Notes: a model not told the origin generated them from the letters alone. A stretch of DNA of 64,000 bases from an uncultured Gammaproteobacteria bacterium (GCA_964651815.1 CAZYWG010000001.1:129189-193188); one strand, 5' to 3'; shown: positions 33,990 to 62,042, numbered from the stretch's first letter. Numbers and translations are program-made.

Positions 33990-34026
33990 TTGTAAAAAGA
34001 ATTTTTATTGTTTAAAATGTATTTTT

Positions 34027-45414: not shown

Positions 45415-47223
45415 TTAAAAGCTGGAAAGTAATGCTTGGATATCAGTGTTTAGAATTAGATACGCACTTTCATTAACATGTTTTCCTCGCTGCGCGCCTA
45501 AATCATTTAACAATGCGCTCAACACATTCTTTTGGGAAGTTTTATCTTTTGATGCACTCTGAACTTTTGAAAGTAAATCTTTACAAATCCCAGAATTATC
45601 TATACTCCCGTTATTACAAAGAGTATTTATATCATTAATAAGACTATTAAAGGTAATCAATTTGGTAATTGAATCATTTTGTGAGTTGTTATGGTTAAAG
45701 TTAATGACATAAATATCACTGTTTGTGTTAATTAAATTCCCAAAAAAGTCTCCTGTTACATCTTGGGCGGTGTTATCAAAAAGGTCAGATTCAAGGTGGT
45801 AGCTTTGATTTGTAGGGGAAGAAATAGTTACATAATATTTGCCACTTGATGGCTTTTTGATATAGTAGATCTTAACTGGGTCTCCACTCGCCACTCCTTC
45901 TGGATCGTCTATTAATGGTTGCTCCATAACTACTCCACCAACAGGAAGGAAGTTTTGATCTGTTACAAAAATATTCACAGAAGGATTAACATACAGCTCA
46001 ATCAGCGATCCGTCGGAATTTGCTGGTGCAAAATGTTTTATTGAAGAAAAAACACCACCATAATCTGTCAAAGTTGTTTTGTTATAAAAGGGATCGTTTA
46101 TAGAAAATGTTGCACTAGTAGTACCGGTTGTAATTACAAAATGGCCACTGTTATTGACCCCAAGTATGTCTGGCTGATGATTTTGTATATCTGTAGTTAA
46201 CTGGGTGTTTGTTGCAGCCGCGAGTGGATCAAACTCTAAAAGATCGTAATGAAAATTAGGATTTGCTGATCGAGCAAGATGTGATAGTTTTGAAATTGCA
46301 CCCCAATTGACATATCCATTCTCAATGTAAGACTTTGAATTTGTCTCAAACCAACTATTTAAAGTTCCAGGGTTTAAGTCTGTTCCATCTGGGAGGTGTG
46401 TGATTCCATAGTATCTTAATAGCATTACGGATGAAGTTAGCGCACATCCCCATCTTGAAATATCTGTTGCTTGTGGAGGAGTCAAGGTTGGCGCCCAAAG
46501 ATTTGCAGAATCATAAAGTTGCCCACCCCAAGCATTATCTGTTTGCTTAAGAAGCGGGACACTAAGATTAACAGAATTACCGTCAATGGTACTAACAACA
46601 ATATTGTCAAAATGAGTTTCACTTGAAGAATCACCACCTACACCCGCTCTCAATCCTATTGTACCTAAAGGCAAAGGTGATGATAAATATATCTCCCTAA
46701 CAAGCAAATTATTTATAAAAACCTTTATATCATCAACATTTACAATAATCTTAACATGATAAGTGCTACCATTTTGATAGTTTTGAGGTACGTTCACTAA
46801 TATCTGGTCTATTGGACCTCCAATTGCGAAATCTCCAGGTGATTGGAAGTGAACTTCGTACAAGGTTAAGGAATTTGGCTCAATTATGTAAGGAAGGTTG
46901 TGATCTGTCCCATTTACAAATTTCATATCCAGTTCTATTTCATATTTGTTTAGAGGAGTAGTCCATTCGGATGGTTTAGGGATTATATTACTTGCACAAC
47001 TAGGTTCGTTTTGAATTTTCATCACAACTTCACCATTCTCTACTACCCATTGAGCACTACATGTAGGTGGAAAATTAAACGGTATCCAGCGAGATGGAAA
47101 TGAATCATTAGGATAAGAATCAAAATTGTCTTGAAATATCGTTGAGGCAAAAATATGTTTCGTAAAAATCGGCGAAAGAAAAAAACACAGCAAAACTAAT
47201 AGGGCAAGATATAGTCTTTTCAT
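45415..47223 (-). CDS. Secreted multidomain protein: signal peptide, LamG/ConA-like domain and a C39-like papain-fold cysteine peptidase domain
   Basis: Signal peptide MKRLYLALLVLLCFFLSPIFTKHIFAST. DNFDSY...HFDNIVV is a LamG_3-like signature. VPLLKQTDNAWGGQLYD...RWGCALTSSVMLLRYYG is Peptidase_C39_2-like with a candidate catalytic Cys. Confidence 0.45.
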   Translation of the reverse strand: MKRLYLALLVLLCFFLSPIFTKHIFASTIFQDNFDSYPNDSFPSRWIPFNFPPTCSAQWVVENGEVVMKIQNEPSCASNIIPKPSEWTTPLNKYEIELDMKFVNGTDHNLPYIIEPNSLTLYEVHFQSPGDFAIGGPIDQILVNVPQNYQNGSTYHVKIIVNVDDIKVFINNLLVREIYLSSPLPLGTIGLRAGVGGDSSSETHFDNIVVSTIDGNSVNLSVPLLKQTDNAWGGQLYDSANLWAPTLTPPQATDISRWGCALTSSVMLLRYYGITHLPDGTDLNPGTLNSWFETNSKSYIENGYVNWGAISKLSHLARSANPNFHYDLLEFDPLAAATNTQLTTDIQNHQPDILGVNNSGHFVITTGTTSATFSINDPFYNKTTLTDYGGVFSSIKHFAPANSDGSLIELYVNPSVNIFVTDQNFLPVGGVVMEQPLIDDPEGVASGDPVKIYYIKKPSSGKYYVTISSPTNQSYHLESDLFDNTAQDVTGDFFGNLINTNSDIYVINFNHNNSQNDSITKLITFNSLINDINTLCNNGSIDNSGICKDLLSKVQSASKDKTSQKNVLSALLNDLGAQRGKHVNESAYLILNTDIQALLSSF

Positions 47224-47294: not shown

Positions 47295-48098
47295 ATGAGT
47301 AAATCTATATCAATAATTTACGTCTACTATAACACCCCACATGAAATATTAGACTCCATTAATTCACTTAGGAGTGCTGCTTCCAATTATGAGGTTATAA
47401 TTGTCAACAACAAATCAACTAGACCTCTCCCAGAAGAAATAAAGAAAAAAAAACACCTGAAGATAATTGACAACATTGAAAACGTGGGTTTTGGGAAGGC
47501 TGCGAATCAGGCAGTTAAACTTGCCCGCGGAACATATGTGATGATTTTAAACCCTGATACTGTATGCTATACAAAATCAATTGATCTTATGGTAGCAAGG
47601 ATGCAACTAGATAAAACAATTGGGGTATTGGGTCCACAACAAGTTAATAAACAGGGCGAAATTTTACATAGCATTGGTTCTATGCCAATGCTTCCAGATG
47701 CAATCTTTGTTTTTTCTTTTTTGAGGAAAATTTGGCCAAAAAATCCATACAAAGAAAAATTTTGGGCAAAAGGAATAGATAGAACTAAAGAGCAAGAGAC
47801 AGAAACCATAGGTGGTGCGTGTATGCTATTCCCAAAAAAAATATTTGATGCAGTTGGTGGTTTCGACGAAAGATTCTTTATGTATTTTGAGGAGGCAGAT
47901 ATTTGCTTGCGAATAAAAAAACTCGGATACAAAATTTTTTATTATCCCAAAGCAAAAATAATGCACTTAGTTGGTAAGAGTACTTCAGATAAAGATTGGA
48001 TTAAAAAAACGTTTGAAAAAAGCAGGTACGAATTTTTTAAAAAATATTATCCTTTTCCTACTGCATTACTTAGTGAATTATTTCTTCGGTTATTCTAA
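47295..48098 (+). CDS. Family-2 glycosyltransferase
   Basis: SIIYVYYNTPHEILDSINSL...YEVIIVNNKST is a GT2 N-terminal signature, and there is a DxD region. Confidence 0.8.
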   Translation: MSKSISIIYVYYNTPHEILDSINSLRSAASNYEVIIVNNKSTRPLPEEIKKKKHLKIIDNIENVGFGKAANQAVKLARGTYVMILNPDTVCYTKSIDLMVARMQLDKTIGVLGPQQVNKQGEILHSIGSMPMLPDAIFVFSFLRKIWPKNPYKEKFWAKGIDRTKEQETETIGGACMLFPKKIFDAVGGFDERFFMYFEEADICLRIKKLGYKIFYYPKAKIMHLVGKSTSDKDWIKKTFEKSRYEFFKKYYPFPTALLSELFLRLF

Positions 48099-48169
48099 CT
48101 TCATTATTATTGCGCGGAAAATATAGTCTTCTTCATACGCTGTAAAAATTACTAATTGATTGTGTGATT

Positions 48170-48841
48170 TCAGATTTCCTTTGTAGACTTCTTAAGTCTA
48201 TATATTCCATGTTTTGCACAAATAGGAAAATTAAATGGTGTAGCATTTATATACTGTATAGTCATGTCTTCCAATCTTAATCCGGGTAAACTTTCAACCA
48301 ACTTTAACATATCTTTTTTTGTCCTAACGTACTTTCCTTGCTCGAGTATTTTATAATAATGCATAAATTTTGGGTCATTTTTCTCTGGCAATAATGGTTC
48401 AACTACAACTAAGATTCCATTTTTAGACAATATTTTAGCAGCAGCGATTGATAATTTAATTGCCATACTGTTATCTATATGATGGATTACACCTGCAAAA
48501 AGTATATAATCAAATTTTTTTGTGGTTTTTTTCACAAAATCCCTTAAATCACTTGCAATAAAATTGAAATTGTTTTTTTCCTTAAAGGCATTCTTCGCAT
48601 ATTTTATTGCAGCATTATCTAAATCTATTCCAGTATAGTTAATGTTTTTATTTTTTAAAAAAGCCTTTGCAGTAATACCTGTTGAACAGCCAATTTCTAA
48701 AATATTTGTTTGATTTCCATAATAGACTTTACATAATTTCCTTTTATCAACTGCCCCTCCCGCAAAATATTGAAATAAAGTCCATAGGCGCGGGAAATTT
48801 GCTTGTGAAAGAAATGGGTTGGAATTTTTTTTTGTTGACAT
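48170..48841 (-). CDS. Class I SAM-dependent methyltransferase
   Basis: SAM motif I ILEIGCSTGITA. Confidence 0.75.
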   Translation of the reverse strand: MSTKKNSNPFLSQANFPRLWTLFQYFAGGAVDKRKLCKVYYGNQTNILEIGCSTGITAKAFLKNKNINYTGIDLDNAAIKYAKNAFKEKNNFNFIASDLRDFVKKTTKKFDYILFAGVIHHIDNSMAIKLSIAAAKILSKNGILVVVEPLLPEKNDPKFMHYYKILEQGKYVRTKKDMLKLVESLPGLRLEDMTIQYINATPFNFPICAKHGIYRLKKSTKEI

Positions 48842-48888
48842 TCTACTTATTTAAAGTATTTCTTATCCAGTCATATCAAAAACTATGA

Positions 48889-49671
48889 TTAAAACTTTGT
48901 TTTTAAATTACCCGTTTTTTTTAATTGGTTTTTCTCATAATACAAAAGGACATCACCACAATAGAACATGGAAACAAAAGGAAGTCTCTCAAAAAAAGGT
49001 TGCACCGTCTGTAAAAACTGAGCAAATTTTTTGTTACAAAAATATGGAATAATTACACAATAGTTTTGCTTTTTAACGAAAAAACCATTTTTTTTAAACC
49101 ATTTATTTATCAGTGGAGGAAAGTAAGATTTCTCTTCATGTTCTATGTGATAAGGCGATACTTTTTCAATTACCTTTAGGATTGGGTTATATCCGTTACA
49201 TTCCAAAACAACTACTTTATCCACAACCTTGGTAACACTTTCAATTGCTTTTTTTGGTTCATAAAGATGATGCAATACGCCTCTTATGATAGCTACGTCA
49301 AATTCTCCTTTTTTTATTTTTTTATCGATATCATATATACTTGCTTGGAAAAATTTTATTTTCCTGAGTTTTCCTTTCTTTACCTTCTCCTGAGCAAACT
49401 TAATCCCCATTTTTGAATTATCAAATCCTACTATTTTTTTGGGGCTAACTTTTTTTAACAATTCTAAAGTAAATGTTCCATCTCCACACCCAACATCTAA
49501 TATTTTTTTATTACGCCCGATTTTTAAAAGAATTGTGTTGACAATTTCATCTGTTTGCCTTTTTGTTGCAAGTCTCGCTGAAAGCCGACGAATATCTGTG
49601 TATATATACCTTCCTGTTTTTGCAACATCTTTGTTATAAACGCTTATAACCTTTTCTTTTTTTATTCTCAT
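48889..49671 (-). CDS. Class I SAM-dependent methyltransferase
   Basis: SAM motif I ILDVGCGDGTFT. Confidence 0.75.
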   Translation of the reverse strand: MRIKKEKVISVYNKDVAKTGRYIYTDIRRLSARLATKRQTDEIVNTILLKIGRNKKILDVGCGDGTFTLELLKKVSPKKIVGFDNSKMGIKFAQEKVKKGKLRKIKFFQASIYDIDKKIKKGEFDVAIIRGVLHHLYEPKKAIESVTKVVDKVVVLECNGYNPILKVIEKVSPYHIEHEEKSYFPPLINKWFKKNGFFVKKQNYCVIIPYFCNKKFAQFLQTVQPFFERLPFVSMFYCGDVLLYYEKNQLKKTGNLKTKF

Positions 49672-49677
49672 AAATCC

Positions 49678-51381
49678 CTATTTTTCAATAAGCCAATTTT
49701 CAAGTAGTAAGCCGTCTAAACCACTATGCGTAAATGTCCAATACGCAGTTTGCAAAGTCCCACACAGCGGATACCCATGAATATTAAATGAGGTGTTTAA
49801 TAACCCACCAACACCCGTAATTTTTTTAAATTCCTTCAAAATACTCTCAAGACCCGGATTCCATTCGTTAACAGTTTGAGGTCTTGTTGTTAAATCAAAG
49901 GGATGAAGTCCTGCAATAATATCTTTTGCCTGTTCGGTTGTATCAAAAGCCTCAATCATATACGGTGAGAATCTGCTTTTTTTAACATATTTTGGCTGAT
50001 CCCCCTCTAGAATTGCTGGGGCAAACGGCATCCAGAAATCTCTTTGCTTAATCGCAACATTAATTTTTCTGATTATACTCAGATTTCTTGGGTCGGCTAA
50101 AATACTCCTATTTCCAAGAGCTCGGGGACCAAATTCATCTCTTCCAGCAAATCGCGCAATGACTTTTCCATTTTTAAGATATGATGAAACTTCTTTCGCA
50201 GACACTTTTCGCGGCTTTTTTTTTAATTTTTTAGATGAAATAAAATCTGTAATTTCTTCTTCGGTATATTGATGGCCATAATAAAGGCTGTCTATTATTG
50301 TTTTTTTTGCAGTTAATTTGTTCTTTTCACAATATCTATAATATCCCTCTAAAGCCACTCCTACTGGAGCTCCACCATCTTCTGCTGCTGGATATACAAA
50401 AAAACTTTCAACCTCTGGAAGTTCACGAATAAGCTTATTGGTTTTAACATTTAAAAAGGACCCTCCTGCACAAACTATTTTATGAATTTTAGTTTCTTTA
50501 ATTGCGTTTTTTACCCAATTCACAACTAGTTCTTGAAAATATTCTTGAGTTGCTGCGGCAATGTTGTCAAAACGCTTACCACGAAGCATTTTTTGATAAA
50601 CCTTTTGCATTTTTTTTAAATAGTGACCAGATATATTTTCAAACTCAAGTGGATTACCTGGATTAATTCGCACAACATTCCTTAAATCATCAATTATACC
50701 GGTTGATTTACCGTATGGTGCAAGACCCATTACTTTATATTCGTGTTCCCACCTTTTCATACCAAGATATGCTGTGATTTCAGAATATAGATTATTGCCG
50801 ATACTGTCATAATAACTTGTCTCAGCTATTCGCTTCATATTAAATTGGCTACCTATACTCACTGTCGCTGAAATACTATCTCCCATTCCATCCAAAGTAA
50901 ATATCAGGGTTTTTTCACTCCATGGTCTTTGATAAAAAGCACATGCAGCATGGACAATATGATGTTCTATGAACTGAATTGGCTTTCCATACATACCTAG
51001 CATTTCTAACTGATTAATGAGCTCTTCTTTTTTTCGAAAGAGATGAAATAATGCAACAGCTGAGTGACTGAGCCATTTTTGGTGAAACCATGGTGAGAAA
51101 ATTTCCGCGAGCAAATGTACTGTATTTTTTTCTACCTTTACAGGGTTGTCGAGCCTTAGTAAACTTGCAATAGTAATAAGAGTCACGTCTCTAGGAGAAA
51201 TGCCAGAAATTTCAAACACTTTTTTAATTGCTAATTTTGGAACTCCTGAAAAGTTTTTTTCATTATTCAACCGTTCTTCGTTAATTGCAGCAATAACCTT
51301 TCCATCAACAACTAACGCTGCCCCGGCATTATGTCCGTCATGAATACCTAATATTACAATTTTATTCTGTGTCGTTTCCAT
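49678..51381 (-). CDS. Carbamoyltransferase of the NodU/CmcH/TobZ family (O-carbamoylation of a sugar or secondary metabolite)
   Basis: 567-aa protein. N-terminal Kae1/YgjD-like domain ILGIHDGHNAGAALVVDGKVIAAINEERLNNEK plus a C-terminal carbamoyltransferase domain. Confidence 0.8.
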   Translation of the reverse strand: METTQNKIVILGIHDGHNAGAALVVDGKVIAAINEERLNNEKNFSGVPKLAIKKVFEISGISPRDVTLITIASLLRLDNPVKVEKNTVHLLAEIFSPWFHQKWLSHSAVALFHLFRKKEELINQLEMLGMYGKPIQFIEHHIVHAACAFYQRPWSEKTLIFTLDGMGDSISATVSIGSQFNMKRIAETSYYDSIGNNLYSEITAYLGMKRWEHEYKVMGLAPYGKSTGIIDDLRNVVRINPGNPLEFENISGHYLKKMQKVYQKMLRGKRFDNIAAATQEYFQELVVNWVKNAIKETKIHKIVCAGGSFLNVKTNKLIRELPEVESFFVYPAAEDGGAPVGVALEGYYRYCEKNKLTAKKTIIDSLYYGHQYTEEEITDFISSKKLKKKPRKVSAKEVSSYLKNGKVIARFAGRDEFGPRALGNRSILADPRNLSIIRKINVAIKQRDFWMPFAPAILEGDQPKYVKKSRFSPYMIEAFDTTEQAKDIIAGLHPFDLTTRPQTVNEWNPGLESILKEFKKITGVGGLLNTSFNIHGYPLCGTLQTAYWTFTHSGLDGLLLENWLIEK

Positions 51382-51683
51382 ATTATGCTAGTATTAATTT
51401 CTAAATCTAAAATATTGCAAGTGGAAAATGAAAATCCCAAAAAAAGCTTTATTTTTCCTGCTCGCTAATTGCTGAATTATATCACACGTTGCGTTCCTTA
51501 GAATAATTCAATAGTGTGATTGTTATGCATTAAATTGGAGAGGTTTAATACTTTGTTAACACCTCTGTCAACCATAAAATTTGGTAAAAAATTATTTAAG
51601 TGCTATCCACTAAAATACAATACGTTGACAATTATGCTATGTATGCTAGTATCAAATTTAAATCATGAAAATAAAACCTCCAA

Positions 51684-53030
51684 ATGTATAATTTTTTCAA
51701 AAAAAATTGGATTTATTTTTCCACAGGATTCATCCTTCTAATTGCTAATTCGTTACTTTTTATTCTCTCAAAACCGGCTGTTGCAATGGAGCTTTTTTAT
51801 TATCCTTGGCTAATTGAAAAAGGCCTCCTCATATACAGGGATTTTTACCATGACCACGGTCCATTACTTAGCTATCTTCTTGCTCCTTTAACTTTAGATA
51901 AATCATTACTTACACTTAAAATGTTTTATATTTTGGTACAAGACGTTAACCTAGCGCTTGTTTTAATCATAATAAAAAGATTTTCTAAGTTTTCGGGTTT
52001 TATTGTTGGAGGGATAGTTTTTATATTGTTAAATTTTATCTTCTCGTACATGTATTTTTGGGACGAGCAGCTAATTGCAACATTTTTTTTGTTAATTTTT
52101 TATGTCCTTAGCATTAAAGATTTTCCATTAAAAACAGCAGTCCTTGGCGTTCTGATTGGACTTTTAGCCTTAATAAAGCCTAACGTAGTGATTATCACAA
52201 TTCCTGTATTTTTTTTATATAAAAGGAAATCTTTCTTATTTTATACAATTTTGGTTTGGTTAATTGCCACGTTATTTTTTTTAGTTCAACATGCGGTTCC
52301 TAATATTATTGATAACGTCATTTTATATAACATCTTTTATCAAAACTTCTCCAGAAACAGCTATCCTTATCTCGAAACCCTTAAAAACCTACAATTTTTC
52401 CTAAACTTTCTCCTTGTCATTTCCATTTTTGCGGTCTTTAACATAAATAAAAAAAACATTAATGTCAGATTGCTCATTTTCATGTTGGTATCGTTAGTCA
52501 CAATATACCCAGAGTTGGGCTATATGCGTTTTGTCCCTTTTGGGGGATTTTTTGCTATTTTTATAGCTTATTTATTTACTATTACTAATAAGAAATTATT
52601 TTTTCTAGCTGTATTGATTTTATACATGGTTGGTTTTTCTTTACAAATAAAAAGCATAATAAAAACCCATCAACATTTAATATCAGTGACTGAAGGTAGT
52701 AGGAACCTGAAGATTGTAAGTTATCTAAAAACAAATAATCTCTATGAGAAAAATTTTTACATCATGAGCAATAATCCCGAAATATATTATATGCTTGACA
52801 GGCCGATTCAACTGTACTTTCCCTTAATGTACCCGAATCTTTCAAGCTACTATAAGAACTATCAACAAACATATATTAATGACTTAAACAGAAATAAAAC
52901 TTACACAGTAATAATTCCACAACCGCTAAGCGTAATTTATGCACAAGCCACTACTCTAATTGCTTTTGTAAAAACAAACTATAAACTTTCTTACAAAGAT
53001 AAAGATTTTTTAGTTTATACAAAAAGATAA
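51684..53030 (+). CDS. Polytopic membrane protein, GT-C-like (DUF2029/mannosyltransferase-like), function unknown
   Basis: 448-aa protein with about 11 or more TM helices and a small extracytoplasmic C-terminal domain. Confidence 0.4.
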   Translation: MYNFFKKNWIYFSTGFILLIANSLLFILSKPAVAMELFYYPWLIEKGLLIYRDFYHDHGPLLSYLLAPLTLDKSLLTLKMFYILVQDVNLALVLIIIKRFSKFSGFIVGGIVFILLNFIFSYMYFWDEQLIATFFLLIFYVLSIKDFPLKTAVLGVLIGLLALIKPNVVIITIPVFFLYKRKSFLFYTILVWLIATLFFLVQHAVPNIIDNVILYNIFYQNFSRNSYPYLETLKNLQFFLNFLLVISIFAVFNINKKNINVRLLIFMLVSLVTIYPELGYMRFVPFGGFFAIFIAYLFTITNKKLFFLAVLILYMVGFSLQIKSIIKTHQHLISVTEGSRNLKIVSYLKTNNLYEKNFYIMSNNPEIYYMLDRPIQLYFPLMYPNLSSYYKNYQQTYINDLNRNKTYTVIIPQPLSVIYAQATTLIAFVKTNYKLSYKDKDFLVYTKR

Positions 53031-53236
53031 ATTGATTAGGTGATAAATTATTCTACCTCATAAATGCGAGTTTTATTGGTGAAACTTTATTTAGCTTCAA
53101 ATTTACCATATAAATATCTGTAATTAACTAGGAAAAGAATTGCATAAATTATGGCATTTAATTTTAGCGTAATTTCCTTTCTTAAATAGTTGTTTAAGTG
53201 TTGTTGCAACCCTAAGCGCTTGCTATAATTGCGGGA

Positions 53237-54184
53237 ATGCAAACTAAAAACGTTTTTGTGACTGGTGGGACCGGATTTATTGGAGCAAACCTTATATACA
53301 GGTTGATTGGAAAAGGATTTACCATACATCTTCTCGTAAGAAAAGAAACAAATTTTTGGAGATTAAAAAAAATTCAAAATAAAATTCACACCCATTTTGT
53401 CGATCCTTTAGAACTGGGTGCTTTATCATCAACATTGAAAAAAATAAATCCAAATGCAATTTTTAATTTAGCGGCATACGGTGGATCATCATCAGAAACA
53501 GATATTCAGGAAACAATTCAAGCGAATATAAATATCACAGCAAATTTGCTGCTCGCTAGTCAAAACATCCCTTATAAAATTTTTGTGAATACCGGGTCGT
53601 CTTCAGAATACGGTTTTAAAAAAAATGCAATGAATGAAAATGATGCGCTTTCACCTAGCAGTTTTTACGCAGCAACAAAAGCTGGCGCAACATATTTATG
53701 TCAAGTTTTTTCAAAACAATATAAAAAACCAATCGTCACACTTCGTCCCTTCTCTGTTTACGGACCTTACGAGTCAAAAAACCGTTTTATCCCTACAATT
53801 GTTCAAAATCTTATCAACAAAAAAGACATAAATGTTACAAAAAGCCCATCACGACGAGATTTTATTTATATTGATGATATAATCGATGCGTATATTAAAA
53901 CTTATCAACTCGGCAAAAAATTAGGCGGTGAAATTTTCAATCTTGGGACAGGAAAAGAATATTCAAATCAAGAAGTGATAGAACAACTTTTTAAAGTATC
54001 AAAGAAAAAAGTTGCGGTAAATCATGGCGCATATGCAGAACGTTCCTGGGACACTCTCCACTGGAAAGCAGATATTTCAAAAGCCAAAAAAGGGCTTGAC
54101 TGGAAACCTAAATATACACTTGCACAAGGTCTAAAAAAAACGTTTAGATGGTTTTCTGAAAATTCAACTCTGTATGAAAATTAA
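53237..54184 (+). CDS. NAD-dependent sugar-nucleotide epimerase/dehydratase (SDR)
   Basis: VFVTGGTGFIGANL (GxxGxxG). YAATKAGA contains the YxxxK catalytic dyad. Confidence 0.85.
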   Translation: MQTKNVFVTGGTGFIGANLIYRLIGKGFTIHLLVRKETNFWRLKKIQNKIHTHFVDPLELGALSSTLKKINPNAIFNLAAYGGSSSETDIQETIQANINITANLLLASQNIPYKIFVNTGSSSEYGFKKNAMNENDALSPSSFYAATKAGATYLCQVFSKQYKKPIVTLRPFSVYGPYESKNRFIPTIVQNLINKKDINVTKSPSRRDFIYIDDIIDAYIKTYQLGKKLGGEIFNLGTGKEYSNQEVIEQLFKVSKKKVAVNHGAYAERSWDTLHWKADISKAKKGLDWKPKYTLAQGLKKTFRWFSENSTLYEN

Positions 54185-54929
54185 CAGAACATCAAAATCA
54201 TTTGAAAAATTTATTAAAAAGCTTTCCACCGAGCAAAAAAAATTAAGAATTAGAATCCTTGAAATTTCTAACGCTGCACAAATTAGCCATATTGGTTCTT
54301 GTTTTTCTTGTGTAGATATAATTGCAGCGATTTATAAAGTGAAAAAACCGGTAGATAAATTTGTATTGAGCAGCGGGCACGCCGGCGTTGCGTTATATTC
54401 GGTCCTTGAAAAAAAAGGGATGATGAAATCTCCCAGTATCGGAAATCTTCACATACACCCTGACAGGAACATCAAAAATGGAATTTACGTCTCAACGGGA
54501 AGCCTAGGACAAGGCTTACCAATTGCCGTTGGGTTTGCACTTGCCAATAGAAATGAGAATGTTTATTGTGTGGTTTCTGATGGGGAGTGTTTTGAGGGAA
54601 GTATTTGGGAGTCAATAAATATTGCATCAAGTCAAAGACTTGGAAATTTAAAAATAGTCGTTAACGCGAATGGTTTTGGGGCTTATGGGAAAACAGATGT
54701 AAACAAACTCGCTCCTAAGTTTATTGCTTTTGGAGCACGTGTTACAACTCTAGACGGACATGATGTCAAAAAAATTTCTAGTGCACTTTCCAAAAAGATA
54801 AAAAATAAACCAGTTGTCATTATTGCAAAAACTACTGTTGAGCAACTTCCTTTTTTACAAGGGCAGGATGCACATTATAAAATAATGATAGCAGAAGAAT
54901 TTAAGCTTGCCCGAGAAATCTTAAAATGA
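54174..54929 (+). CDS. Split transketolase, N-terminal (ThDP/PP-domain) subunit
   Basis: GH...ThDP-binding GDG...N motif (VVSDGECFEGSIWE...VVNANG). Confidence 0.8.
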   Translation: MKINRTSKSFEKFIKKLSTEQKKLRIRILEISNAAQISHIGSCFSCVDIIAAIYKVKKPVDKFVLSSGHAGVALYSVLEKKGMMKSPSIGNLHIHPDRNIKNGIYVSTGSLGQGLPIAVGFALANRNENVYCVVSDGECFEGSIWESINIASSQRLGNLKIVVNANGFGAYGKTDVNKLAPKFIAFGARVTTLDGHDVKKISSALSKKIKNKPVVIIAKTTVEQLPFLQGQDAHYKIMIAEEFKLAREILK

Positions 54930-55450
54930 AAGCCAAATTGCAAAAACTTAATATCAAACATCGTCATCCCACAATGAGGGGATGGTTTTCCTATGAACTT
55001 TATAATCTTATGTTGAAAGATGACAAAATATGGGTAATAGTTGGTGACTTAGGATATAAAATGTTCGACTTTATAAGAGAGGCTTTCCCCGAGCGATTTA
55101 TAAATACAGGGTCCGCGGAACAAGCAATGATAGGAATTGCAATAGGTCTTGCACTTCAAGGAAAGAAGCCTTTTGTTTATTCAATTACGCCATTTCTTCT
55201 CTATCGTCCATTTGAAACGATAAGAAACTATATTAATCAGGAAAAAATCCCAGTCCGTTTAATTGGCGCCGGACGAGATCGTGATTATCTACATGATGGG
55301 TTTTCTCATTGGGCAGAAGAGGATAAAAAAATAATGAAGATTTTTGGAAATATAAATTCTTTATGGCCAAGCAAAAACGAGGATATTCCATCACACGTTA
55401 AAAAAATGGTAAATACTAATAAACCATGGTACATTAACCTTAAGAAATAG
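54926..55450 (+). CDS. Split transketolase, pyrimidine-binding (Pyr) domain subunit; short form with no C-terminal domain
   Basis: FINTGSAEQAMIGIAIGLALQGKKPFVYSITPFL is a Pyr-domain signature. Only 174 aa, against a typical ~300-aa C-subunit. Confidence 0.7.
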   Translation: MKAKLQKLNIKHRHPTMRGWFSYELYNLMLKDDKIWVIVGDLGYKMFDFIREAFPERFINTGSAEQAMIGIAIGLALQGKKPFVYSITPFLLYRPFETIRNYINQEKIPVRLIGAGRDRDYLHDGFSHWAEEDKKIMKIFGNINSLWPSKNEDIPSHVKKMVNTNKPWYINLKK

Positions 55451-55452
55451 AT

Positions 55453-56397
55453 ATGAAGAAAAAAATTTCAGCAATCATTGCATGTTATAAAGACGGAGAA
55501 GCAATTCCTGTGATGTATAAAAGACTTTCCGAAACTTTCAAGGCATTGAAAATTGATTATGAAATAATTTTTGTAAACGATGGCAGTCCTGATAATTCAG
55601 AGGAGGTAATAAGTAAAATCGTTGCAAAAGATGGACACGTTATAGGAATTAACCACTCAAGAAATTTCAGCTCCCAAATGGCATTTACAAGCGGAATGGA
55701 TATCTCAACGGGCGACGCAATTGTTTTTCTGGACGGAGACTTGCAAGACCCTCCTGAGATAATAAAAGACTTCTATAAAAAATGGATTGAAGGATATGAT
55801 GTCGTTTATGGTATCAGAGCAAAACGCGAAGCACCAATGTGGATGGCTCTTTCTTATAAATTATTTTATAGAATTTTTAATAAAATGTCCTACATAAAAA
55901 TGCCATTGGACGCTGGAGACTTTTCACTTATTGATAGGAGAGTGGTTGAAGTTTTAAAACAGTTTCCTGAAAGAGATAGGTTTCTACGGGGTCTTCGCGC
56001 TTGGGTAGGCTTTAAGCAAACTGGAATAAAATACGTAAGACCGGAAAGAATGTTTGGAAAAACAACAAATAATCTGTTCAAAAACATCAATTGGGCATTT
56101 AAAGGTATATTTTCTTTTTCGTATGTACCTTTGCAAATTATGACACTTATTTCTTTCTCAATATTTGTTTTGGCAATTATTGGAATTATTTTCCAAATTA
56201 TTATCCGTCTTTTTTTCAACGTAACCCCGCAAGGAACCACTACTGTTTTAATCGTCATATTATTTTTAGGTGCATTGCAACTTCTTGGCATAAGTATTCT
56301 TGGACAATATATGGGGAAAATTTTTGAGGAAGTAAAATTACGTCCAAAATATATTGTAAAAAGTATTATTAAACATTCCAACCCTCGTAGAAAATAA
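55453..56397 (+). CDS. Polyprenyl-phosphate glycosyltransferase of the GtrB/DPM1 type (GT2 domain with two C-terminal TM helices)
   Basis: IIACYKDGEAIPVMY...IIFVNDGSPDNSEEV...FLDGDLQDPPE contains the DxD motif. Two C-terminal TM helices. Confidence 0.85.
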   Translation: MKKKISAIIACYKDGEAIPVMYKRLSETFKALKIDYEIIFVNDGSPDNSEEVISKIVAKDGHVIGINHSRNFSSQMAFTSGMDISTGDAIVFLDGDLQDPPEIIKDFYKKWIEGYDVVYGIRAKREAPMWMALSYKLFYRIFNKMSYIKMPLDAGDFSLIDRRVVEVLKQFPERDRFLRGLRAWVGFKQTGIKYVRPERMFGKTTNNLFKNINWAFKGIFSFSYVPLQIMTLISFSIFVLAIIGIIFQIIIRLFFNVTPQGTTTVLIVILFLGALQLLGISILGQYMGKIFEEVKLRPKYIVKSIIKHSNPRRK

Positions 56398-57308
56398 TGA
56401 TGAAAGATGGACATCTCATAACTACTCATTGTGCCATCTGTGGTTTTGCCGAAAAAAAAGAAGAACTTTACACCACAACTTTTGATACTAAAAAAATAAA
56501 TAGTAAAACTTTTTCTGCCCGCCGTACTCCAGACCGCATGCATTACAGATTTGTCAGGTGTAAGAAATGTGGCCTAATTTTCTCAGATCCTATTCTCCCA
56601 GAAAAAAAGCTTAATGAACTTTATAAAAAAAGTGGCTTTACATATAGTCAGGAATCAAAATACCTTAAGAACACATACGGCTATTATTTATCGAAAATAA
56701 TTCCCAAAAAAGGAAAAGTTAAACTTCTTGATATTGGATGTGGCGACGGATTTTTTATGGAAGAAGCAAAAAATCTTGGGGCTACTGACATTTTTGGTAT
56801 TGAACCGGGTGCGCCATCTGTAAAACATGCACCTCAAAATATCCAAGGTAACATTAAAGTTGATATTCTTAGAAAAGGATTATTTAAACCCGGAACATTT
56901 GATATTATTACTTGTTTTCAAACCCTTGACCATATCCCTGATCCAAATGAGTTCCTAAAAATAACAAGAAATCTTCTAAAAAAGGGTGGCAAGGCACTAT
57001 TTATACAACATAATACTGATGGACTTTCCGTAAAAGTCCTGCATGAAAAATCCCCGATATTTGACGTTGAGCACATTTATTTATTCAACAAAAAAACACT
57101 CAAAAAGATTTTTGAAAAAAATGGTTTTAAGGTCAAAGGCGTATTCGATGTTAAAAACTGTTATCCAATATCATACTGGACACGTATGCTCCCTTTTTCA
57201 AGAGGGTTTAAAAAAATAATTCTGCCATTTCTTGACATAACAAAAATAGGTCTTATACCAATAACGATAGGTGCCGGTAATTTAGGAATAATCGCGGAAA
57301 AAATCTAA
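56397..57308 (+). CDS. Class I SAM-dependent methyltransferase with an N-terminal Zn-ribbon; paralog of the 31304-32257 gene
   Basis: CAICG...CKKCG Zn-ribbon. LLDIGCGDGFFMEEAKNLGA. Confidence 0.8.
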   Translation: MMKDGHLITTHCAICGFAEKKEELYTTTFDTKKINSKTFSARRTPDRMHYRFVRCKKCGLIFSDPILPEKKLNELYKKSGFTYSQESKYLKNTYGYYLSKIIPKKGKVKLLDIGCGDGFFMEEAKNLGATDIFGIEPGAPSVKHAPQNIQGNIKVDILRKGLFKPGTFDIITCFQTLDHIPDPNEFLKITRNLLKKGGKALFIQHNTDGLSVKVLHEKSPIFDVEHIYLFNKKTLKKIFEKNGFKVKGVFDVKNCYPISYWTRMLPFSRGFKKIILPFLDITKIGLIPITIGAGNLGIIAEKI

Positions 57309-57796: not shown

Positions 57797-58342
57797 ATGG
57801 AATGGGAATCTTGGCAATACAAAAATTTAACAATATTATTTTTCTCATTTCTTCTGTCTCTCGCGCTCGGAAGTTTTAAACCGTTCCACGAATTCCTTTT
57901 TACTGCCGGGTATTGGTCCGCATTTCTAGCCGGAGTAATTTTTGTTTTTACTTTTAGTGCCCCGATTGCTGCCGTTATACTTTTGATTCTTGCCGAAAAA
58001 CTTCCTATTTTCCTTGTGTTAGTTGCTGCCAGTTTTGGCGCAATACTCTCCGACTTTACAATCTTCCGTTTGTTCAAAGATGGTCTTGCTGAAGAAATCG
58101 AACCACTTTATGAAAATCTAGGCAAAAATCATTTTAAACATATATTGCGAACCAAACATTTTAGGAGACTTCTCCCTGTAATTGGCGCGATAATTATTTT
58201 GACTCCTCTTCCTGACGATGTGGGAATAAATCTTATGGGAATTCACAAACTAAAAAACCAACAGTTTTTGGTTTTGTCAGCGCTTGTTAACGTTGTTGGA
58301 ATAATTTTTATTCTTCTCCTATCTTTTGTGATCAAACCCTAA
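57797..58342 (+). CDS. Hypothetical membrane protein (about 5 TM helices)
   Basis: Hydrophobic 181-aa ORF, translationally coupled to the next gene. Confidence 0.4.
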   Translation: MEWESWQYKNLTILFFSFLLSLALGSFKPFHEFLFTAGYWSAFLAGVIFVFTFSAPIAAVILLILAEKLPIFLVLVAASFGAILSDFTIFRLFKDGLAEEIEPLYENLGKNHFKHILRTKHFRRLLPVIGAIIILTPLPDDVGINLMGIHKLKNQQFLVLSALVNVVGIIFILLLSFVIKP

Positions 58343-58344
58343 AT

Positions 58345-59517
58345 ATGCTGTTTAGCAACAATAAATTTTGGTATGGATTTATTATTTTTATAGCATTAAA
58401 CATTTTTTTATACGTTTTTATTTTTAAGTTTAACAAAATCCCTTTTGATTCATTTGATTACACGTATAATTCCCACCACTATCTTAGAGACAACAGGATA
58501 GATAAAGGCCCCTTTAATTTTTTGCGTTCTTTAGGGCAGTATGACGCACAATGGTATCTAAAAATTGCAAATGATTCTTATCCTACGCTTCCAAAAAATA
58601 TTGATATGAATAATAAAAAAGTTATGGATGGCCTAACTTTTGCTTTTTTCCCTTTTTATCCTCTGGCAATTCGAACAATAAATTACGCTTTTAAAAATGT
58701 AGAACTTAGTGCCTTTGTTCTTTCTAATTTGCTATTACTTCTCGACTTTATCAGTCTTTTTTTTGTTGTTTCAAAATTATATAAGATAGATATAGCATTA
58801 AAAACTATTTTTCTTCTCTTTCTTTTCCCATTTTCTATTTTCTTTAGAAGTTATTTTACAGAAAGCCTACTGCTTCTAGAGCTTGTTTGGTTTTCCCATT
58901 TTTTAATAAATAGAAAGTGGATTTTTTCGTCCATTATTTTAGGCCTTATGATAGTTACTCGGGGAGCAGGAATATTTATCCTCCCTGTATTTTTCTATTT
59001 TCTATACAAAAATACCAAAACCAGAAATTTAAATCTGCAGTCTTTCTTTTGGATTATCTTATTTTCTCTCACACCTTTGTTTTTATGGCTTTCTTATTGT
59101 TATTTACAGACCGGAAACGCTCTATATTTTTTGTCCATAAGAAGCGTATGGTTTTCTGATCCCGTTCCAATATTACATAACTTTCTTATGATTTTTCTAT
59201 TTTGGAAATTACCGCTTCACAATTTTCATACTTCACAAATAGATGTAACAACAATAATAGTTTTACTCGCTCTTTTGATTAAAAGTAAAAAAATGATTAA
59301 ACCGGAATTATGGCTGATAAGTTTTGCGCTTTGGTTAGGCCCGCTTCTCACAACTGATACTATGTCTTTCACCCGATACCAAATAATATCGTTTCCTATA
59401 TTTATATATCTAGCTCAAATTTTAGTAGGCTATAAATACTGGGCTTTGACAATAATTTTCTTTTTAGGTTTACTTTTTACTTCTCTTCTTTTTGTAAATT
59501 GGTACTGGCTCGGGTAA
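58345..59517 (+). CDS. Polytopic membrane protein, GT-C-like glycosyltransferase candidate
   Basis: 390-aa protein with about 10 TM helices and an extracytoplasmic loop near the N-terminus. Confidence 0.4.
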   Translation: MLFSNNKFWYGFIIFIALNIFLYVFIFKFNKIPFDSFDYTYNSHHYLRDNRIDKGPFNFLRSLGQYDAQWYLKIANDSYPTLPKNIDMNNKKVMDGLTFAFFPFYPLAIRTINYAFKNVELSAFVLSNLLLLLDFISLFFVVSKLYKIDIALKTIFLLFLFPFSIFFRSYFTESLLLLELVWFSHFLINRKWIFSSIILGLMIVTRGAGIFILPVFFYFLYKNTKTRNLNLQSFFWIILFSLTPLFLWLSYCYLQTGNALYFLSIRSVWFSDPVPILHNFLMIFLFWKLPLHNFHTSQIDVTTIIVLLALLIKSKKMIKPELWLISFALWLGPLLTTDTMSFTRYQIISFPIFIYLAQILVGYKYWALTIIFFLGLLFTSLLFVNWYWLG

Positions 59518-61842: not shown

Positions 61843-61913
61843 CCCTTCATTTCGTAAACGGGGGGAGGACCAACTTCTTTGGCCTTGCCAAACTAAGCCT
61901 TGGCGAAGTTGTG

Positions 61914-62000
61914 CGGAGAGGGCGAGATTCGAACTCGCGGTGACGTTGCCGCCACAAAGGTTTTCAAGACCTTCGCACTAGACCACTATGCGACCTCTCC
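61914..62000 (-). tRNA. tRNA-Ser (anticodon TGA)
   Basis: Folded manually. Acceptor GGAGAGG/CCTCTCC. 3-bp D stem. Anticodon stem AAGGT/ACCTT with loop CTTGAAA. 18-nt variable arm. T arm GCGAG-TTCGAAT-CTCGC. Discriminator G. CCA is not encoded. Confidence 0.85.
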
Positions 62001-62041
62001 ACTGAAAAGTAGGCAAAAAATTAACTTATCTACTTTTCAGT
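62000..62041. repeat. Perfect 13-bp inverted repeat (hairpin) filling the spacer between the two tRNA-Ser genes
   Basis: cactgaaaagtag (62000-62012), a 16-nt loop, then ctacttttcagtg (62029-62041). Confidence 0.8.
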
Positions 62042-62042
62042 G

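Follow-up and report, generated by a model that had tools for sequence, protein, structure and literature searches.

A five-gene cassette at positions 53237-57308, uncharacterised so far, forms the conserved core of a cell-surface or cell-envelope glycan-decoration locus in an uncultivated Patescibacteria (Microgenomates-like) bacterium, and its probable product is a chemically modified, lipid-linked sugar. The surrounding region (47295-57308) is a mosaic of modules and not a single fixed pathway. ORF and domain-profile analysis of the window, by which we mean the whole 64-kb stretch of DNA that was analysed, recovered all ten genes that a preliminary description had listed for this region, with the domain content it had given and with functions that hold at the family level. 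Its interpretation as a whole stands in part: the enzyme families hold, the co-occurrence of the genes needs qualification, and the rarity of the predicted chemistry was overstated. The genes of the region, together with two downstream membrane protein genes, are the following:

47295-48098, + strand: soluble GT2 glycosyltransferase, 267 aa, a variable member of the locus (PF00535, E 4e-22)
48170-48841, - strand: class I methyltransferase, 223 aa, on the strand of the carbamoyltransferase (PF13649, E 4e-14; weak NodS-like match)
48889-49671, - strand: class I methyltransferase, 260 aa (PF13847, E 7e-22)
49678-51381, - strand: NodU/CmcH/TobZ-family carbamoyltransferase, accessory module (PF02543, E 9e-41; PF16861, E 8e-52)
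51684-53030, + strand: polytopic membrane protein, 448 aa, with a C-terminal soluble domain (no Pfam match)
53237-54184, + strand: extended SDR, nucleotide-sugar epimerase/oxidoreductase-like, first cassette gene (PF01370, E 1e-44)
54174-54929, + strand: transketolase-like ThDP-binding (PP) subunit, a shortened N-terminal half, 251 aa (PF00456, E 2e-22)
54926-55450, + strand: transketolase-like pyrimidine-binding (Pyr) subunit, 174 aa (PF02779 only)
55453-56397, + strand: GtrB/ArnC-like polyprenyl-phosphate glycosyltransferase, GT2 (PF00535, E 8e-25)
56397-57308, + strand: Zn-ribbon class I SAM methyltransferase, last cassette gene (PF13489, E 3e-24; N-terminal CxxC...CxxC)
58345-59517, + strand: polytopic membrane protein, 390 aa, weak GT-C (PMT_2) candidate (PF13231, E 0.003, below cut-off)
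59470-60699, - strand: GT87 (PimE-type) GT-C glycosyltransferase (PF09594, E 3e-25, above the gathering score)

The conserved cassette

The cassette is a translationally coupled operon, in which the SDR, the PP subunit (TKN), the Pyr subunit (TKpyr), the GtrB-like enzyme and the Zn-ribbon methyltransferase follow one another with junctions of -11, -4, +2 and -1 nt, the first being an 11-nt overlap between the SDR and TKN genes. It is found in many Microgenomates glycan loci with its gene order shuffled, and as these genes are found together on dozens of unrelated contigs, their clustering is not due to chance. A TKN homolog lies directly upstream of TKpyr in 59 of 61 metagenome loci, and among the 26 metagenome loci with enough flanking sequence, the cassette is accompanied by a GtrB ortholog in 19 and by an ortholog of the Zn-ribbon methyltransferase (39-55% identity) in 18. 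In L089-L091, L097, L103 and other loci, an SDR ortholog (50-56% identity) immediately precedes the transketolase genes, and in L087-L091 a GtrB ortholog (73-75% identity) immediately follows them. The methyltransferase is divergent from SDR-TKN-TKpyr-GtrB in L089-L091, the order is SDR-methyltransferase-TKN-TKpyr-GtrB in L131, L138 and L166 and TKN-TKpyr-SDR-GtrB-methyltransferase in L144, and in L151, L154 and L169 GtrB and the methyltransferase lie upstream on the opposite strand. The co-occurrence of the region's genes in related loci is asymmetric: it holds for the SDR, the split transketolase, GtrB and the Zn-ribbon methyltransferase, and it fails for the carbamoyltransferase, which is near the cassette in 2 of 25 metagenome loci and absent from the other 23.

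The carbamoyltransferase module and the variable genes

The carbamoyltransferase is of the NodU/CmcH/TobZ type, as had been proposed. A tRNA-modification enzyme of the Kae1/HypF type is ruled out, because the corresponding profiles match marginally (TsaD, E 0.0026; HypF, 30 bits where the cut-off is 466) next to the strong PF02543 and PF16861 matches. Its best solved relatives are 7xb6 (E 1e-49), followed by NovN, GdmN and TobZ, and the best solved-structure match reaches 172 bits. With TobZ, NovN, GdmN, NodU/NolO and WapO (PA5005) it has in common the motifs and the two-domain architecture, Kae1-like plus YrdC-like, and it keeps the family-invariant motifs, including HHxxH, DG.GD, GR.E.GPRALGNRS, KxR and NTSFN. 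It is an ortholog of no characterised O-carbamoyltransferase (NodU equivalog score 110.8 against a cut-off of 1000).

Viewed from the cassette, the sequence comparisons make this enzyme an occasional add-on. Viewed from the carbamoyltransferase, the clade with at least 66% identity adjoins the cassette in nearly every context examined, and in all six distinct ones for which contig context exists (the window, L002/L008, L004, L006/L086, L007/L087 and L088). Members of this clade lie within 0-3.5 kb of transketolase genes in eight loci and in five different arrangements, directly adjacent in L002 and L134, and the number of arrangements exceeds what inherited synteny would give. In the next relative (L048, 62% identity) the cassette is missing, and relatives with at most 57% identity are found in glycan loci without a transketolase, L012 being the sole exception. 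Two more distant relatives that we inspected are both in glycan loci, one of them together with a GtrB-like GT2 and a ThDP enzyme of another class.

Whether the carbamoyltransferase acts on the sugar of the cassette is in our estimate an even question. The alternative that it and its methyltransferases are an independent module, which modifies another glycan or a small molecule that is not a glycan, is improbable, though it survives better than the other alternatives. It would agree with the absence of the enzyme from most cassette loci, with the contexts of the relatives of at most 57% identity, with the opposite strands of the two modules in the window, and with the 448-aa protein and the first GT2 being demonstrably shuffled between loci. 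Against it stands the repeated placement of the closest clade beside the transketolase genes, and all carbamoyltransferase contexts inspected are glycan loci and not secondary-metabolite clusters.

The 260-aa methyltransferase gene starts 6 nt downstream of the carbamoyltransferase gene. In L087 and L088 an ortholog (47-51% identity) is next to the carbamoyltransferase, and L099 and L105 have one without it. For the 223-aa methyltransferase, no ortholog of at least 100 bits was found in 25 related loci, the first GT2 has only weak, scattered relatives in related loci, and a homolog of the 448-aa protein (69% identity) occurs in a different glycan locus that has neither transketolase nor carbamoyltransferase. 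Judged by these comparisons, none of the three is a conserved partner of the cassette.

Carbamoylated and methylated glycans had been called rare, which overstates the case. The carbamoyltransferase family has thousands of homologs, at least 240 genome stretches from bacteria and archaea encode a relative, and the clade spans Patescibacteria, Chloroflexi, Planctomycetes and many archaea. Besides the distant relatives in glycan loci, carbamoylation of a cell-surface glycan is established for WapO, which modifies the LPS core heptose in Pseudomonas (PMC8005017).

Probable lipid loading and candidate GT-C enzymes

The assignment of the GtrB-type enzyme was confirmed. It matches Synechocystis GtrB (5ekp, E 1e-76) and ArnC (9hwj, E 1e-41), scores 233 bits with the NCBIfam PgfS model and 160 bits with that of ArnC, both under the equivalog cut-offs, and has the C-terminal hydrophobic block (residues 222-287) expected for the family. 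We regard a route via a polyprenyl-phosphate sugar as likely. Hydrophobic segments are absent from the SDR, both transketolase subunits, the carbamoyltransferase, its two methyltransferases and the first GT2. One short segment, at residues 274-292, is found in the C-terminal part of the Zn-ribbon methyltransferase, which carries a CAIC...CKKC motif within residues 12-58. Its residues 34-248 weakly resemble the sugar 3-C-methyltransferase KijD1 (5t64, E 5e-4), and its similarity to the UbiG core is stronger.

Several GT-C candidates were said to flank the locus, and a polyprenyl-phosphate-dependent one does lie nearby, the GT87 protein at 59470-60699. With at least seven hydrophobic segments it is a candidate for the extracytoplasmic user of the polyprenyl-phosphate sugar; it is not conserved beside the cassette in other loci, and a search of the related loci found no GT-C partner conserved with the cassette. 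The other two proteins fared less well. The 390-aa protein has six hydrophobic blocks and a sub-threshold PMT_2 match, and the 448-aa protein has a weak fold match only. Its family is small (14 clusters, 5 of them weakly matching EpsG) and its AlphaFold model is poor (pLDDT 60). Its top four Foldseek matches are weak throughout (best E 0.02); three are to GT-C enzymes and one is to the C-terminal soluble domain of the oligosaccharyltransferase AglB, such that the protein is a candidate for a GT-C-like or EpsG-like transferase or polymerase.

The SDR and the split mini-transketolase

The SDR keeps the GGTGFIG Rossmann motif and the S...YxxxK triad. In place of the Asp-Glu dyad of RmlB and other 4,6-dehydratases it has Ser-Ser, and its local sequence motif there resembles that of the UDP-GlcA 4-epimerase 6zl6. 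Because the dehydratase dyad is missing, the earlier label of an epimerase is a fair one, if read as epimerase-like.

What had been described as a split transketolase (54174-55450) does consist of two subunits, yet the second has only 174 aa and no Transketolase_C domain, the next gene beginning 2 nt further on. Among solved structures, the PP subunit is closest to the N-terminal chain of 6yak, a split transketolase (E 9e-26). It keeps equivalents of the three catalytic histidines, the SDG...N Mg/ThDP motif and GSLGQG; several loops are deleted. The Pyr subunit matches residues 42-191 of 6yaj (E 8e-19). Its best 120 protein clusters are all of about 170 aa, with 62-79% identity, and about 70 of its best 150 representatives at the 50%-identity level have 150-180 aa, which makes the truncated subunit a large conserved family and not a fragment. 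The family conserves the cofactor Glu65, Asp124, His128, Arg18 and a terminal Arg/Lys174. The mini-transketolase retains equivalents of Asp469 and His473 and of both substrate-phosphate arginines, and the latter would allow ordinary sugar phosphates as substrates. Of the four residues that bind the sugar phosphate, two are missing: the equivalents of transketolase Ser385 and His461 (E. coli numbering) have become Lys45 and Gly, and new invariant residues are found at that site (Gly116-Arg117 and Tyr121; Asp120 is shared by 92% of members). A full-length transketolase from the glycan locus L004 likewise lacks the Ser385 and His461 equivalents.

We consider it reasonably probable that this enzyme serves the glycan pathway of the locus and not the pentose phosphate pathway; that its step is specifically the addition of a two-carbon branch is a tentative suggestion. 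It is unlikely that the enzyme is an ordinary pentose-phosphate transketolase or a supplier of ketose or heptose phosphates, with the cassette loading a conventional methylated Glc or GlcNAc onto polyprenyl phosphate. Such a role would fit the retention of all ThDP and catalytic residues and of both phosphate-binding arginines, the transaldolase-family (TAL_FSA) gene that adjoins the cassette in L091, and the 64-kb window having no second transketolase. [quoted passage not shown] Split transketolase genes are known from them, and in Microgenomates such housekeeping genes share an operon with that of an aldolase (PMC7143001). Against this stand the loss of the C-terminal domain and of the Ser385 and His461 equivalents, the new invariant residues at the substrate site, the same two losses in the full-length L004 enzyme, a family score of 164 bits against the NCBIfam transketolase cut-off of 488, and the genes staying beside the SDR, GtrB and methyltransferase genes despite the shuffling of their order. 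Other ThDP chemistry, be it ketol cleavage that shortens the chain by two carbons or a DXS- or YerE-like reaction in which pyruvate provides an acetyl or hydroxyethyl group in place of hydroxyacetyl, is quite improbable: DXP synthase profiles also match both subunits, in L173, a related Patescibacteria locus, an acetolactate-synthase/YerE-class ThDP enzyme accompanies a carbamoyltransferase and a GtrB-like GT2, and the remodelled substrate site is uninformative on reaction direction or donor, but both subunits have their highest overall similarity to transketolases, above DXS, and the conserved Asp469 and His473 equivalents are typical of acceptor handling by transketolases.

A proposed pathway

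From the observed gene content, family assignments, residue conservation and synteny we infer the following chemistry, including substrate, step order and acceptor. A keto-sugar would be tailored in the cytoplasm, loaded on polyprenyl phosphate, transferred outside by a GT-C enzyme and, in this lineage, carbamoylated; to this reading as a whole we assign a probability of about 45%. The tailoring probably includes a thiamine-dependent two-carbon step and methylation. The SDR would either produce a keto-sugar by oxidation of a common nucleotide sugar or reduce one later on. Epimerase-like SDRs normally retain their keto intermediate and do not release it, which counts against this step. On this sugar the C-domain-less split transketolase would then form or cleave a C-C bond by means of ThDP, the likeliest reaction being the addition of a two-carbon unit (ketol or acyl) to the keto group, which would give a branched or extended sugar. 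Methylation of the sugar by the Zn-ribbon methyltransferase would follow, and the GtrB-like enzyme would move the finished sugar from the nucleotide to polyprenyl phosphate. After flipping, a GT-C enzyme, for which the GT87 protein and perhaps the 448-aa or 390-aa protein are candidates, would join it to an acceptor outside the membrane, for instance a surface protein or a wall glycopolymer. In this lineage the divergent operon 48170-51381 may add a carbamoyl group, from carbamoyl phosphate and ATP via carbamoyl-AMP, and further methyl groups, presumably on a cytoplasmic intermediate, since the carbamoyltransferase and its two methyltransferases are all soluble. Profile searches recognised neither a nucleotidyltransferase nor a GtrA-type flippase in the locus, which counts against the proposal.

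Relation to known systems

Like the Gtr (GtrA/GtrB/GtrC) and GacI/CsbB-type systems, in which one sugar is loaded on polyprenyl phosphate in the cytoplasm and then transferred outside, the locus combines a GtrB-type GT2 that has a C-terminal membrane anchor with nearby polytopic GT-C-type proteins. It differs from Gtr in having no recognised GtrA, in its Patescibacterium host, and in that the GtrB gene shares an operon with a sugar-tailoring SDR, a ThDP enzyme and a methyltransferase, so that something other than unmodified glucose or GlcNAc is probably transferred. For tailoring before lipid loading, the best analog would be the Arn pathway (ArnA/B/C/D/T, L-Ara4N on lipid A), with its SDR-derived keto-sugar, tailoring, ArnC-type loading on undecaprenyl phosphate and GT-C transfer. 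There, however, tailoring is by an aminotransferase and a formyltransferase, whereas here it is by a transketolase-like ThDP enzyme and a methyltransferase, and no ArnA decarboxylase signature, ArnD or ArnE/F is present.

An oxidoreductase together with a two-subunit transketolase is also found in the miharamycin and amipurimycin clusters of Streptomyces, where ketol transfer to a sugar ketone, adding a hydroxyacetyl group after the oxidoreductase has made the keto-sugar, has been proposed without proof (PMC12247030); the likeness lies in the genes and in the proposed reaction. For the two-carbon branch that the preliminary description suggested, this is a published, if unproven, precedent. 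Those enzymes belong to antibiotic clusters and are uncharacterised in vitro, whereas the one described here has no C-terminal domain, and its genes, in a cell-envelope glycan locus, are coupled with that of a polyprenyl-phosphate transferase. YerE and related ThDP enzymes, which make acyl-branched sugars (yersiniose) of O-antigens, are a precedent in that they use ThDP to form a C-C bond on a nucleotide-4-keto-sugar bound for a surface polysaccharide (PMC12247030; PMC9306805). YerE is of the decarboxylase/acetolactate-synthase class, a single flavin-binding chain with Pyr before PP, unlike the two-subunit, transketolase-class enzyme of the cassette. Sugar C-methyltransferases of the KijD1 type, which have a Zn domain, act on keto-sugars.

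Gene content of the locus

The preliminary description had read a glycan-decoration locus between 47295 and 57308, and an ORF map together with Pfam and NCBIfam scans confirmed every gene that it had listed. These genes, and a further glycosyltransferase downstream, are as follows.

Genes of the locus and the evidence for each
47295-48098, +, GT2 (Pfam/NCBIfam scans)
48170-48841, -, class I methyltransferase, 223 aa (Pfam/NCBIfam scans)
48889-49671, -, class I methyltransferase (Pfam/NCBIfam scans)
49678-51381, -, carbamoyltransferase, 567 aa (PF02543 and PF16861)
51684-53030, +, polytopic membrane protein, 448 aa (ORF map)
53237-54184, +, extended SDR (Pfam/NCBIfam scans)
54174-54929, +, transketolase N half, TKN (Pfam/NCBIfam scans)
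54926-55450, +, transketolase Pyr half, 174 aa, TKpyr (Pfam/NCBIfam scans)
55453-56397, +, GtrB-like GT2 (Pfam/NCBIfam scans, matches to relatives of known structure)
56397-57308, +, methyltransferase with an N-terminal CxxC...CxxC ribbon (Pfam/NCBIfam scans, sequence motif)
59470-60699, GT87 enzyme (a GT-C family), 2 kb downstream (Pfam)

At the level of the family, the sequence-based assignments of the carbamoyltransferase, the GtrB-like GT2, the SDR and the methyltransferases are secure. The rest of the window, which has a GC content of about 35%, encodes purine biosynthesis, GroEL, LepA, MurJ, PilN/PilO, a LytR-CpsA-Psr ligase, FemAB and DUF2298 proteins, and the nearest protein relatives carry the names Daviesbacteria, Levybacteria and Gottesmanbacteria. 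Taken jointly, these features suggest a genome of the Microgenomates type within the Patescibacteria. A scan for promoters and terminators gave no enrichment over shuffled sequences (44 sites against 49±7.5, and 6 against 6.9±3.1); the sole notable site, TTGACA-16-TAGTAT at 51625-51652, lies upstream of the gene for the 448-aa protein.

A conserved five-gene cassette

The SDR, the two transketolase halves, the GtrB homologue and the Zn-ribbon methyltransferase (53237-57308) form a single tight operon in the window, with junctions of -11, -4, +2 and -1 nt. We followed this cassette through the gene tables of three loci (L089-L091) and by tblastn over 80 metagenome loci, counting only loci with enough flanking sequence. 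TKN lies directly upstream of the Pyr half in 59 of 61 loci, a GtrB orthologue (63-75% identity) is present in 19 of 26 and an orthologue of the Zn-ribbon methyltransferase (39-55% identity) in 18 of 26, and in most loci an SDR orthologue adjoins the transketolase genes. Gene order and orientation vary from locus to locus but the gene set persists, and such persistence despite reshuffling is the signature of a functional unit.

The same does not hold for the locus as a whole. Co-occurrence of its genes in related genomes was borne out for the five-gene cassette, whereas the carbamoyltransferase, one methyltransferase, the 448-aa protein and the first GT2 vary, such that a fixed ten-gene operon is rejected. 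The carbamoyltransferase accompanies the cassette in only 2 of 25 loci with enough flank, and tblastn of the metagenome loci returned no orthologues of the 448-aa protein, the first GT2 or the 223-aa methyltransferase. The locus is a mosaic in which a conserved cassette is combined with a carbamoyl/methyl module particular to the lineage and with transferases that vary.

The literature that we searched contained no description of a cassette combining a mini-transketolase, GtrB, an SDR and a methyltransferase; on transketolases in O-antigen or capsule clusters it offered passing mentions alone, for example of subunits in a glycan-related region of Campylobacter fetus. In two of the loci with gene tables, a gene resembling FAD amine oxidases and UDP-galactopyranose mutase follows the GtrB gene (L090, 11463-12725; L091, 11463-13682), and in L091 a transaldolase-family gene lies between the two.

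A transketolase-like enzyme without a C-terminal domain

TKpyr ends at residue 174 and has no C-terminal domain (PF02780); the next gene begins 2 nt further on. Its best 120 clusters are all approximately 170 aa long at 62-79% identity, and when 50%-identity representatives were searched exhaustively, about 70 of the best 150 matches measured 150-180 aa, most of them ranking above the canonical C-halves of approximately 300 aa. This uniform length, together with the deep set of short representatives, argues that the truncation is real and old; with more than 100 clusters of equal length, a pseudogene or assembly artefact is rejected. A 427-aa protein from the same search (P0298), which matches the Pyr-only subunit over residues 261-422, looks like an N and a Pyr half joined in one chain, likewise lacking the C-terminal domain.

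The catalytic apparatus is largely intact. If residue roles are taken over from work on the E. coli and human enzymes, as we assume here, the pair keeps the ThDP/Mg motif (SDG...N), GSLGQG, equivalents of the three catalytic histidines, the invariant cofactor-activating Glu65 (in AEQ), and the Asp and His that contact the acceptor hydroxyl; several loops of the N domain are deleted in TKN. The substrate site is altered. Transketolase binds the substrate phosphate by four ligands (Arg358, Ser385, His461 and Arg520 in E. coli numbering), and TKpyr retains the equivalents of both arginines (R18 and R/K174), but across 114 family members the Ser is replaced by Lys45 and the His by Gly. A G-R...D-Y signature occupies the site instead, with Gly116, Arg117 and Tyr121 in 114 of 114 sequences and Asp120 in 92%. 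The transketolase equivalog NF004559 is not reached, since TKN scores 164 bits and TKpyr 55 bits against a cut-off of 488. Thus, one defining feature is present, namely a PP domain with ThDP/Mg motif and catalytic His joined by a Pyr domain with the cofactor Glu, whereas three of the four tested are not (the pair has no C-terminal domain, keeps two of the four phosphate ligands and stays below the equivalog cut-off), and for this reason we call the pair transketolase-like rather than a transketolase. A full-length version from another glycan locus (L004) already lacks the Ser and His ligands, which suggests that a transketolase lineage was recruited to glycan loci and shed its C-terminal domain later.

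These features bear on the possibility that the mini-transketolase is simply the housekeeping enzyme. Split transketolase genes are known from Microgenomates, where they stand in an operon with an aldolase (PMC7143001), and the transaldolase-family gene adjoining the cassette in L091, the two retained phosphate-binding arginines and the failure to find a second transketolase within the 64-kb window fit such a role. The loss of the C-terminal domain, the remodelled substrate site and the recurrent linkage of the transketolase genes to the SDR, GtrB and methyltransferase genes speak against it.

The carbamoyltransferase and its context

The carbamoyltransferase had been placed in the NodU/CmcH/TobZ family with the caveat that it might resolve as a tRNA-modifying Kae1 or a HypF-type enzyme, and the placement stands. 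PF02543, the N-terminal Kae1/ASKHA-like domain, scores 140.8 bits against a gathering cut-off of 24, and PF16861, the C-terminal YrdC-like domain, 175.6 bits against 27. Full-length alignments were obtained with the solved O-carbamoyltransferases 7xb6, NovN and GdmN, and TobZ aligned over its C-terminal half. An alignment of 12 family members shows no variation at H140, H141, H144, D164, D335, the G418-S426 block, K445, R447 and N529-N533; the corresponding HxxxH, Asp residues, GPRALGNRS, KxR and NTSFN we take to form the metal-binding and carbamoyl-AMP sites in TobZ. With both domains far above threshold, an end-to-end match to solved O-carbamoyltransferases and invariant motifs, a Kae1/TsaD or HypF identity is rejected, the matches to those profiles being marginal and below their cut-offs (TsaD PF00814, 18 bits against 24.8; HypF TIGR00143, 30 against 466; TIGR00329, 29 against 208). 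Orthology to NodU, the Nod-factor 6-O-carbamoyltransferase, is rejected as well (NF041651, 110.8 bits against an equivalog cut-off of 1000).

The argument that carbamoylated and methylated glycans are rare turned out weaker than the preliminary description had it. A carbamoylated surface glycan is already known in the LPS core of Pseudomonas, where WapO is involved (PMC8005017), and homologous carbamoyltransferases are common in uncultivated lineages: the clade comprises 7,935 proteins at E ≤1e-20, with relatives in at least 240 genome stretches from Patescibacteria, Chloroflexi, Planctomycetes and many archaeal lineages. Both distant relatives inspected (in loci L172 and L173) lie in glycan loci with GT2, GT4, SDR, PMT_2 and Wzm/Wzt-like ABC transporter genes, and a glycan locus likewise surrounds every other homologue inspected.

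From the at least 240 stretches we retained 80 loci with 38-68% identity to the carbamoyltransferase, searched them by tblastn with 15 window proteins and also inspected gene tables. Wherever the relative is at least 66% identical, a split transketolase lies within 0-3.5 kb, in five distinct arrangements (the window, L002/L008, L004, L006/L086, L007/L087 and L088, plus L133 and L134 from the search of metagenome loci); in L002 and L134 the carbamoyltransferase is directly upstream of the transketolase N half. No transketolase is found beside a 62% relative (L048) or beside nearly all relatives at or below 57%.

It may be that carbamoyltransferase and cassette are independent modules, such that the substrate of the former differs from the product of the latter. 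The absence of the carbamoyltransferase from 23 of 25 cassette loci speaks for this, but at 66% identity or more the clade adjoins the cassette in every context seen.

In one of the two distant loci (L173, 1-5897; GCA_964520615.1, CAZFNL010000137.1), an acetolactate-synthase/YerE-class ThDP enzyme and two SDRs are encoded upstream of a 56% relative of the carbamoyltransferase. After the ThDP enzyme and the SDRs come a sugar-phosphate cyclase related to AroB (TIGR04425, 348 bits), a protein resembling HpcH and a GT2 of the GtrB/PgfS type. The analogous position is thus occupied by a ThDP enzyme of another class than that of the window, and this patescibacterial locus is consistent with ThDP-dependent sugar modification as a recurring theme of such loci.

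The remaining cassette enzymes

In the SDR the Rossmann motif and the Ser-Tyr-Lys triad are preserved, and there is local similarity to a UDP-GlcA 4-epimerase. It is not an NDP-sugar 4,6-dehydratase of the RmlB type, as alignment with 6bi4 places Ser-Ser at the Asp-Glu dyad, with Tyr and Lys kept. The GtrB homologue matches Synechocystis GtrB (5ekp) over residues 5-304 with E 1e-76, and ArnC with E 1e-41; it has a DGD motif (in FLDGDLQD) and a GT-A GT2 domain followed by a C-terminal transmembrane region (hydrophobic block 222-287), the architecture of the GtrB/ArnC/DPMS type.

The Zn-ribbon methyltransferase has a UbiG-like core and a weak match (E 5e-4) to KijD1 (5t64), a sugar 3-C-methyltransferase with a Zn domain. 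Its CxxC...CxxC is present, and neither PF08421 nor PF08484 was detected even at E up to 1, such that the PF08421/SAM/PF08484 architecture of sugar C-methyltransferases of the TylC3/KijD1 type is missing. A C-terminal hydrophobic segment occupies residues 274-292 of this protein (56397-57308, +), which may be membrane-associated and act on a lipid-linked rather than a nucleotide sugar. A further methyltransferase (31304-32257), from the first glycan locus of the window, has a methyltransferase region 28% identical to that of the cassette enzyme.

A possible pathway

Among working systems, the Arn pathway and those of the Gtr type are the nearest analogues: there, a nucleotide sugar is tailored in the cytoplasm, a GtrB/ArnC-type GT2 loads it onto polyprenyl phosphate, and after flipping it is transferred by an enzyme of the GT-C class. 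Here, a nucleotide sugar would be tailored in the cytoplasm by the epimerase-like SDR, the ThDP enzyme and the methyltransferase, put on polyprenyl phosphate by the GtrB/ArnC-type GT2, flipped and passed on by a GT-C enzyme; it is this tailoring set that departs from the Arn and Gtr-type systems. The carbamoyltransferase and its two methyltransferases are devoid of hydrophobic segments, which points to action on a cytoplasmic intermediate that they would modify. By analogy, the locus can be read as a variant of Gtr/Arn-type lipid-linked sugar decoration with a chemistry that we infer.

For the ThDP step, a precedent comes from miharamycin and amipurimycin biosynthesis, where split-gene transketolases have been proposed, though not proven, to add a hydroxyacetyl group to a keto-sugar made by an oxidoreductase, and 13 further split transketolases of Streptomyces clusters have been predicted to use ketone acceptors (PMC12247030). 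The pairing of an SDR with a split transketolase agrees with this order of oxidoreductase and transketolase, which makes a two-carbon branch a reasonable guess. Instead of adding hydroxyacetyl, the ThDP enzyme might split off a ketol or take pyruvate as its donor.

The most far-reaching reading, to which we give a probability of roughly three in ten, is that the cassette is a hitherto unrecognised pathway, common in Microgenomates, to a lipid-linked, methylated surface sugar that is ThDP-branched or two-carbon-extended, and in this lineage carbamoylated. If so, it would provide the first functional role for a minimal transketolase of PP and Pyr domains, and the first enzyme of the transketolase class to branch a sugar of a cell-envelope glycan; if the cassette serves housekeeping metabolism and routine glucosylation, there is nothing unusual about the locus.

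Patescibacteria live for the most part as uncultivated epibionts, and their surface glycans probably mediate attachment to the host, and to our knowledge essentially nothing is known of the chemistry of these glycans. The mini-transketolase cassette, more than the carbamoyltransferase, is the more interesting object of the locus. Since it links a minimal enzyme of transketolase type with a polyprenyl-phosphate transferase, it offers a concrete target for expression (four soluble enzymes and one membrane enzyme), and it bears on whether transketolase-class enzymes branch keto-sugars, which is still a proposal in miharamycin and amipurimycin biosynthesis too, and on the purpose of the transketolase C-terminal domain.

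Membrane proteins and other glycan genes of the window

For the role of extracytoplasmic transferase, the strongest candidate is the GT87 enzyme at 59470-60699. The resemblance of the 448-aa protein to GT-C enzymes is weak: the AlphaFold model (pLDDT 60) is too poor for a firm fold call, its top Foldseek matches (DPY19, STT3, the soluble C-terminal domain of AglB, and ALG9) are weak (best E 0.02, TM about 0.37), and 5 of 14 relatives weakly match EpsG. A 69% homologue is found in a separate glycan locus (L174, Logan SRR22387933_50022) that has neither transketolase nor carbamoyltransferase. That locus also encodes two genuine sugar C-methyltransferases (PF08421, PF13489, PF08484), GT2-PMT_2 fusions of 725-764 aa and a Wzy_C protein.

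No small membrane protein matched the GtrA-type flippase family, even in a relaxed Pfam search. At 57797-58342 (+), 2 nt before a 390-aa PMT_2-like gene, lies the gene for a 181-aa protein that has four hydrophobic segments but matches no family; it may be a small flippase or an accessory subunit.

Two other regions of the window carry glycan genes. What had been counted as the first glycan locus (29104-38921) comprises two DUF2298 membrane proteins (738 and 716 aa), a PMT_2 protein, an SDR and a LytR-CpsA-Psr ligase. At 266-5594 (-) there is a third module for lipid-linked glycans: the gene for a UbiA-family prenyltransferase (266-1207) overlaps that for a GT4 MraY/WecA-type phosphosugar transferase (1200-2261), and after these come a PMT_2-like membrane protein (2602-4104) and a 497-aa GT2 (4101-5594).

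Directly upstream of the locus under study, 45415-47223 (-) encodes a protein of 602 aa in which a Peptidase_C39-like domain is combined with an N-terminal hydrophobic segment; the protein also weakly matches the folds of 3-keto-disaccharide hydrolase and alginate lyase. At 44515-45351 (-) is an unusual 278-aa fusion of an ATP-cone, an Mrr-type restriction endonuclease catalytic domain and an AF1548-like C-terminal domain. The gene table of an identical contig (L001) shows a nickel superoxide dismutase (PF09055) at 43254-43784 (-), followed by a signal-peptidase-like gene, the Ni-SOD maturation protease. Finally, two adjacent tRNA-Ser genes with the anticodons TGA and GCT, 41 nt apart, are located at 61913-62128 (-).
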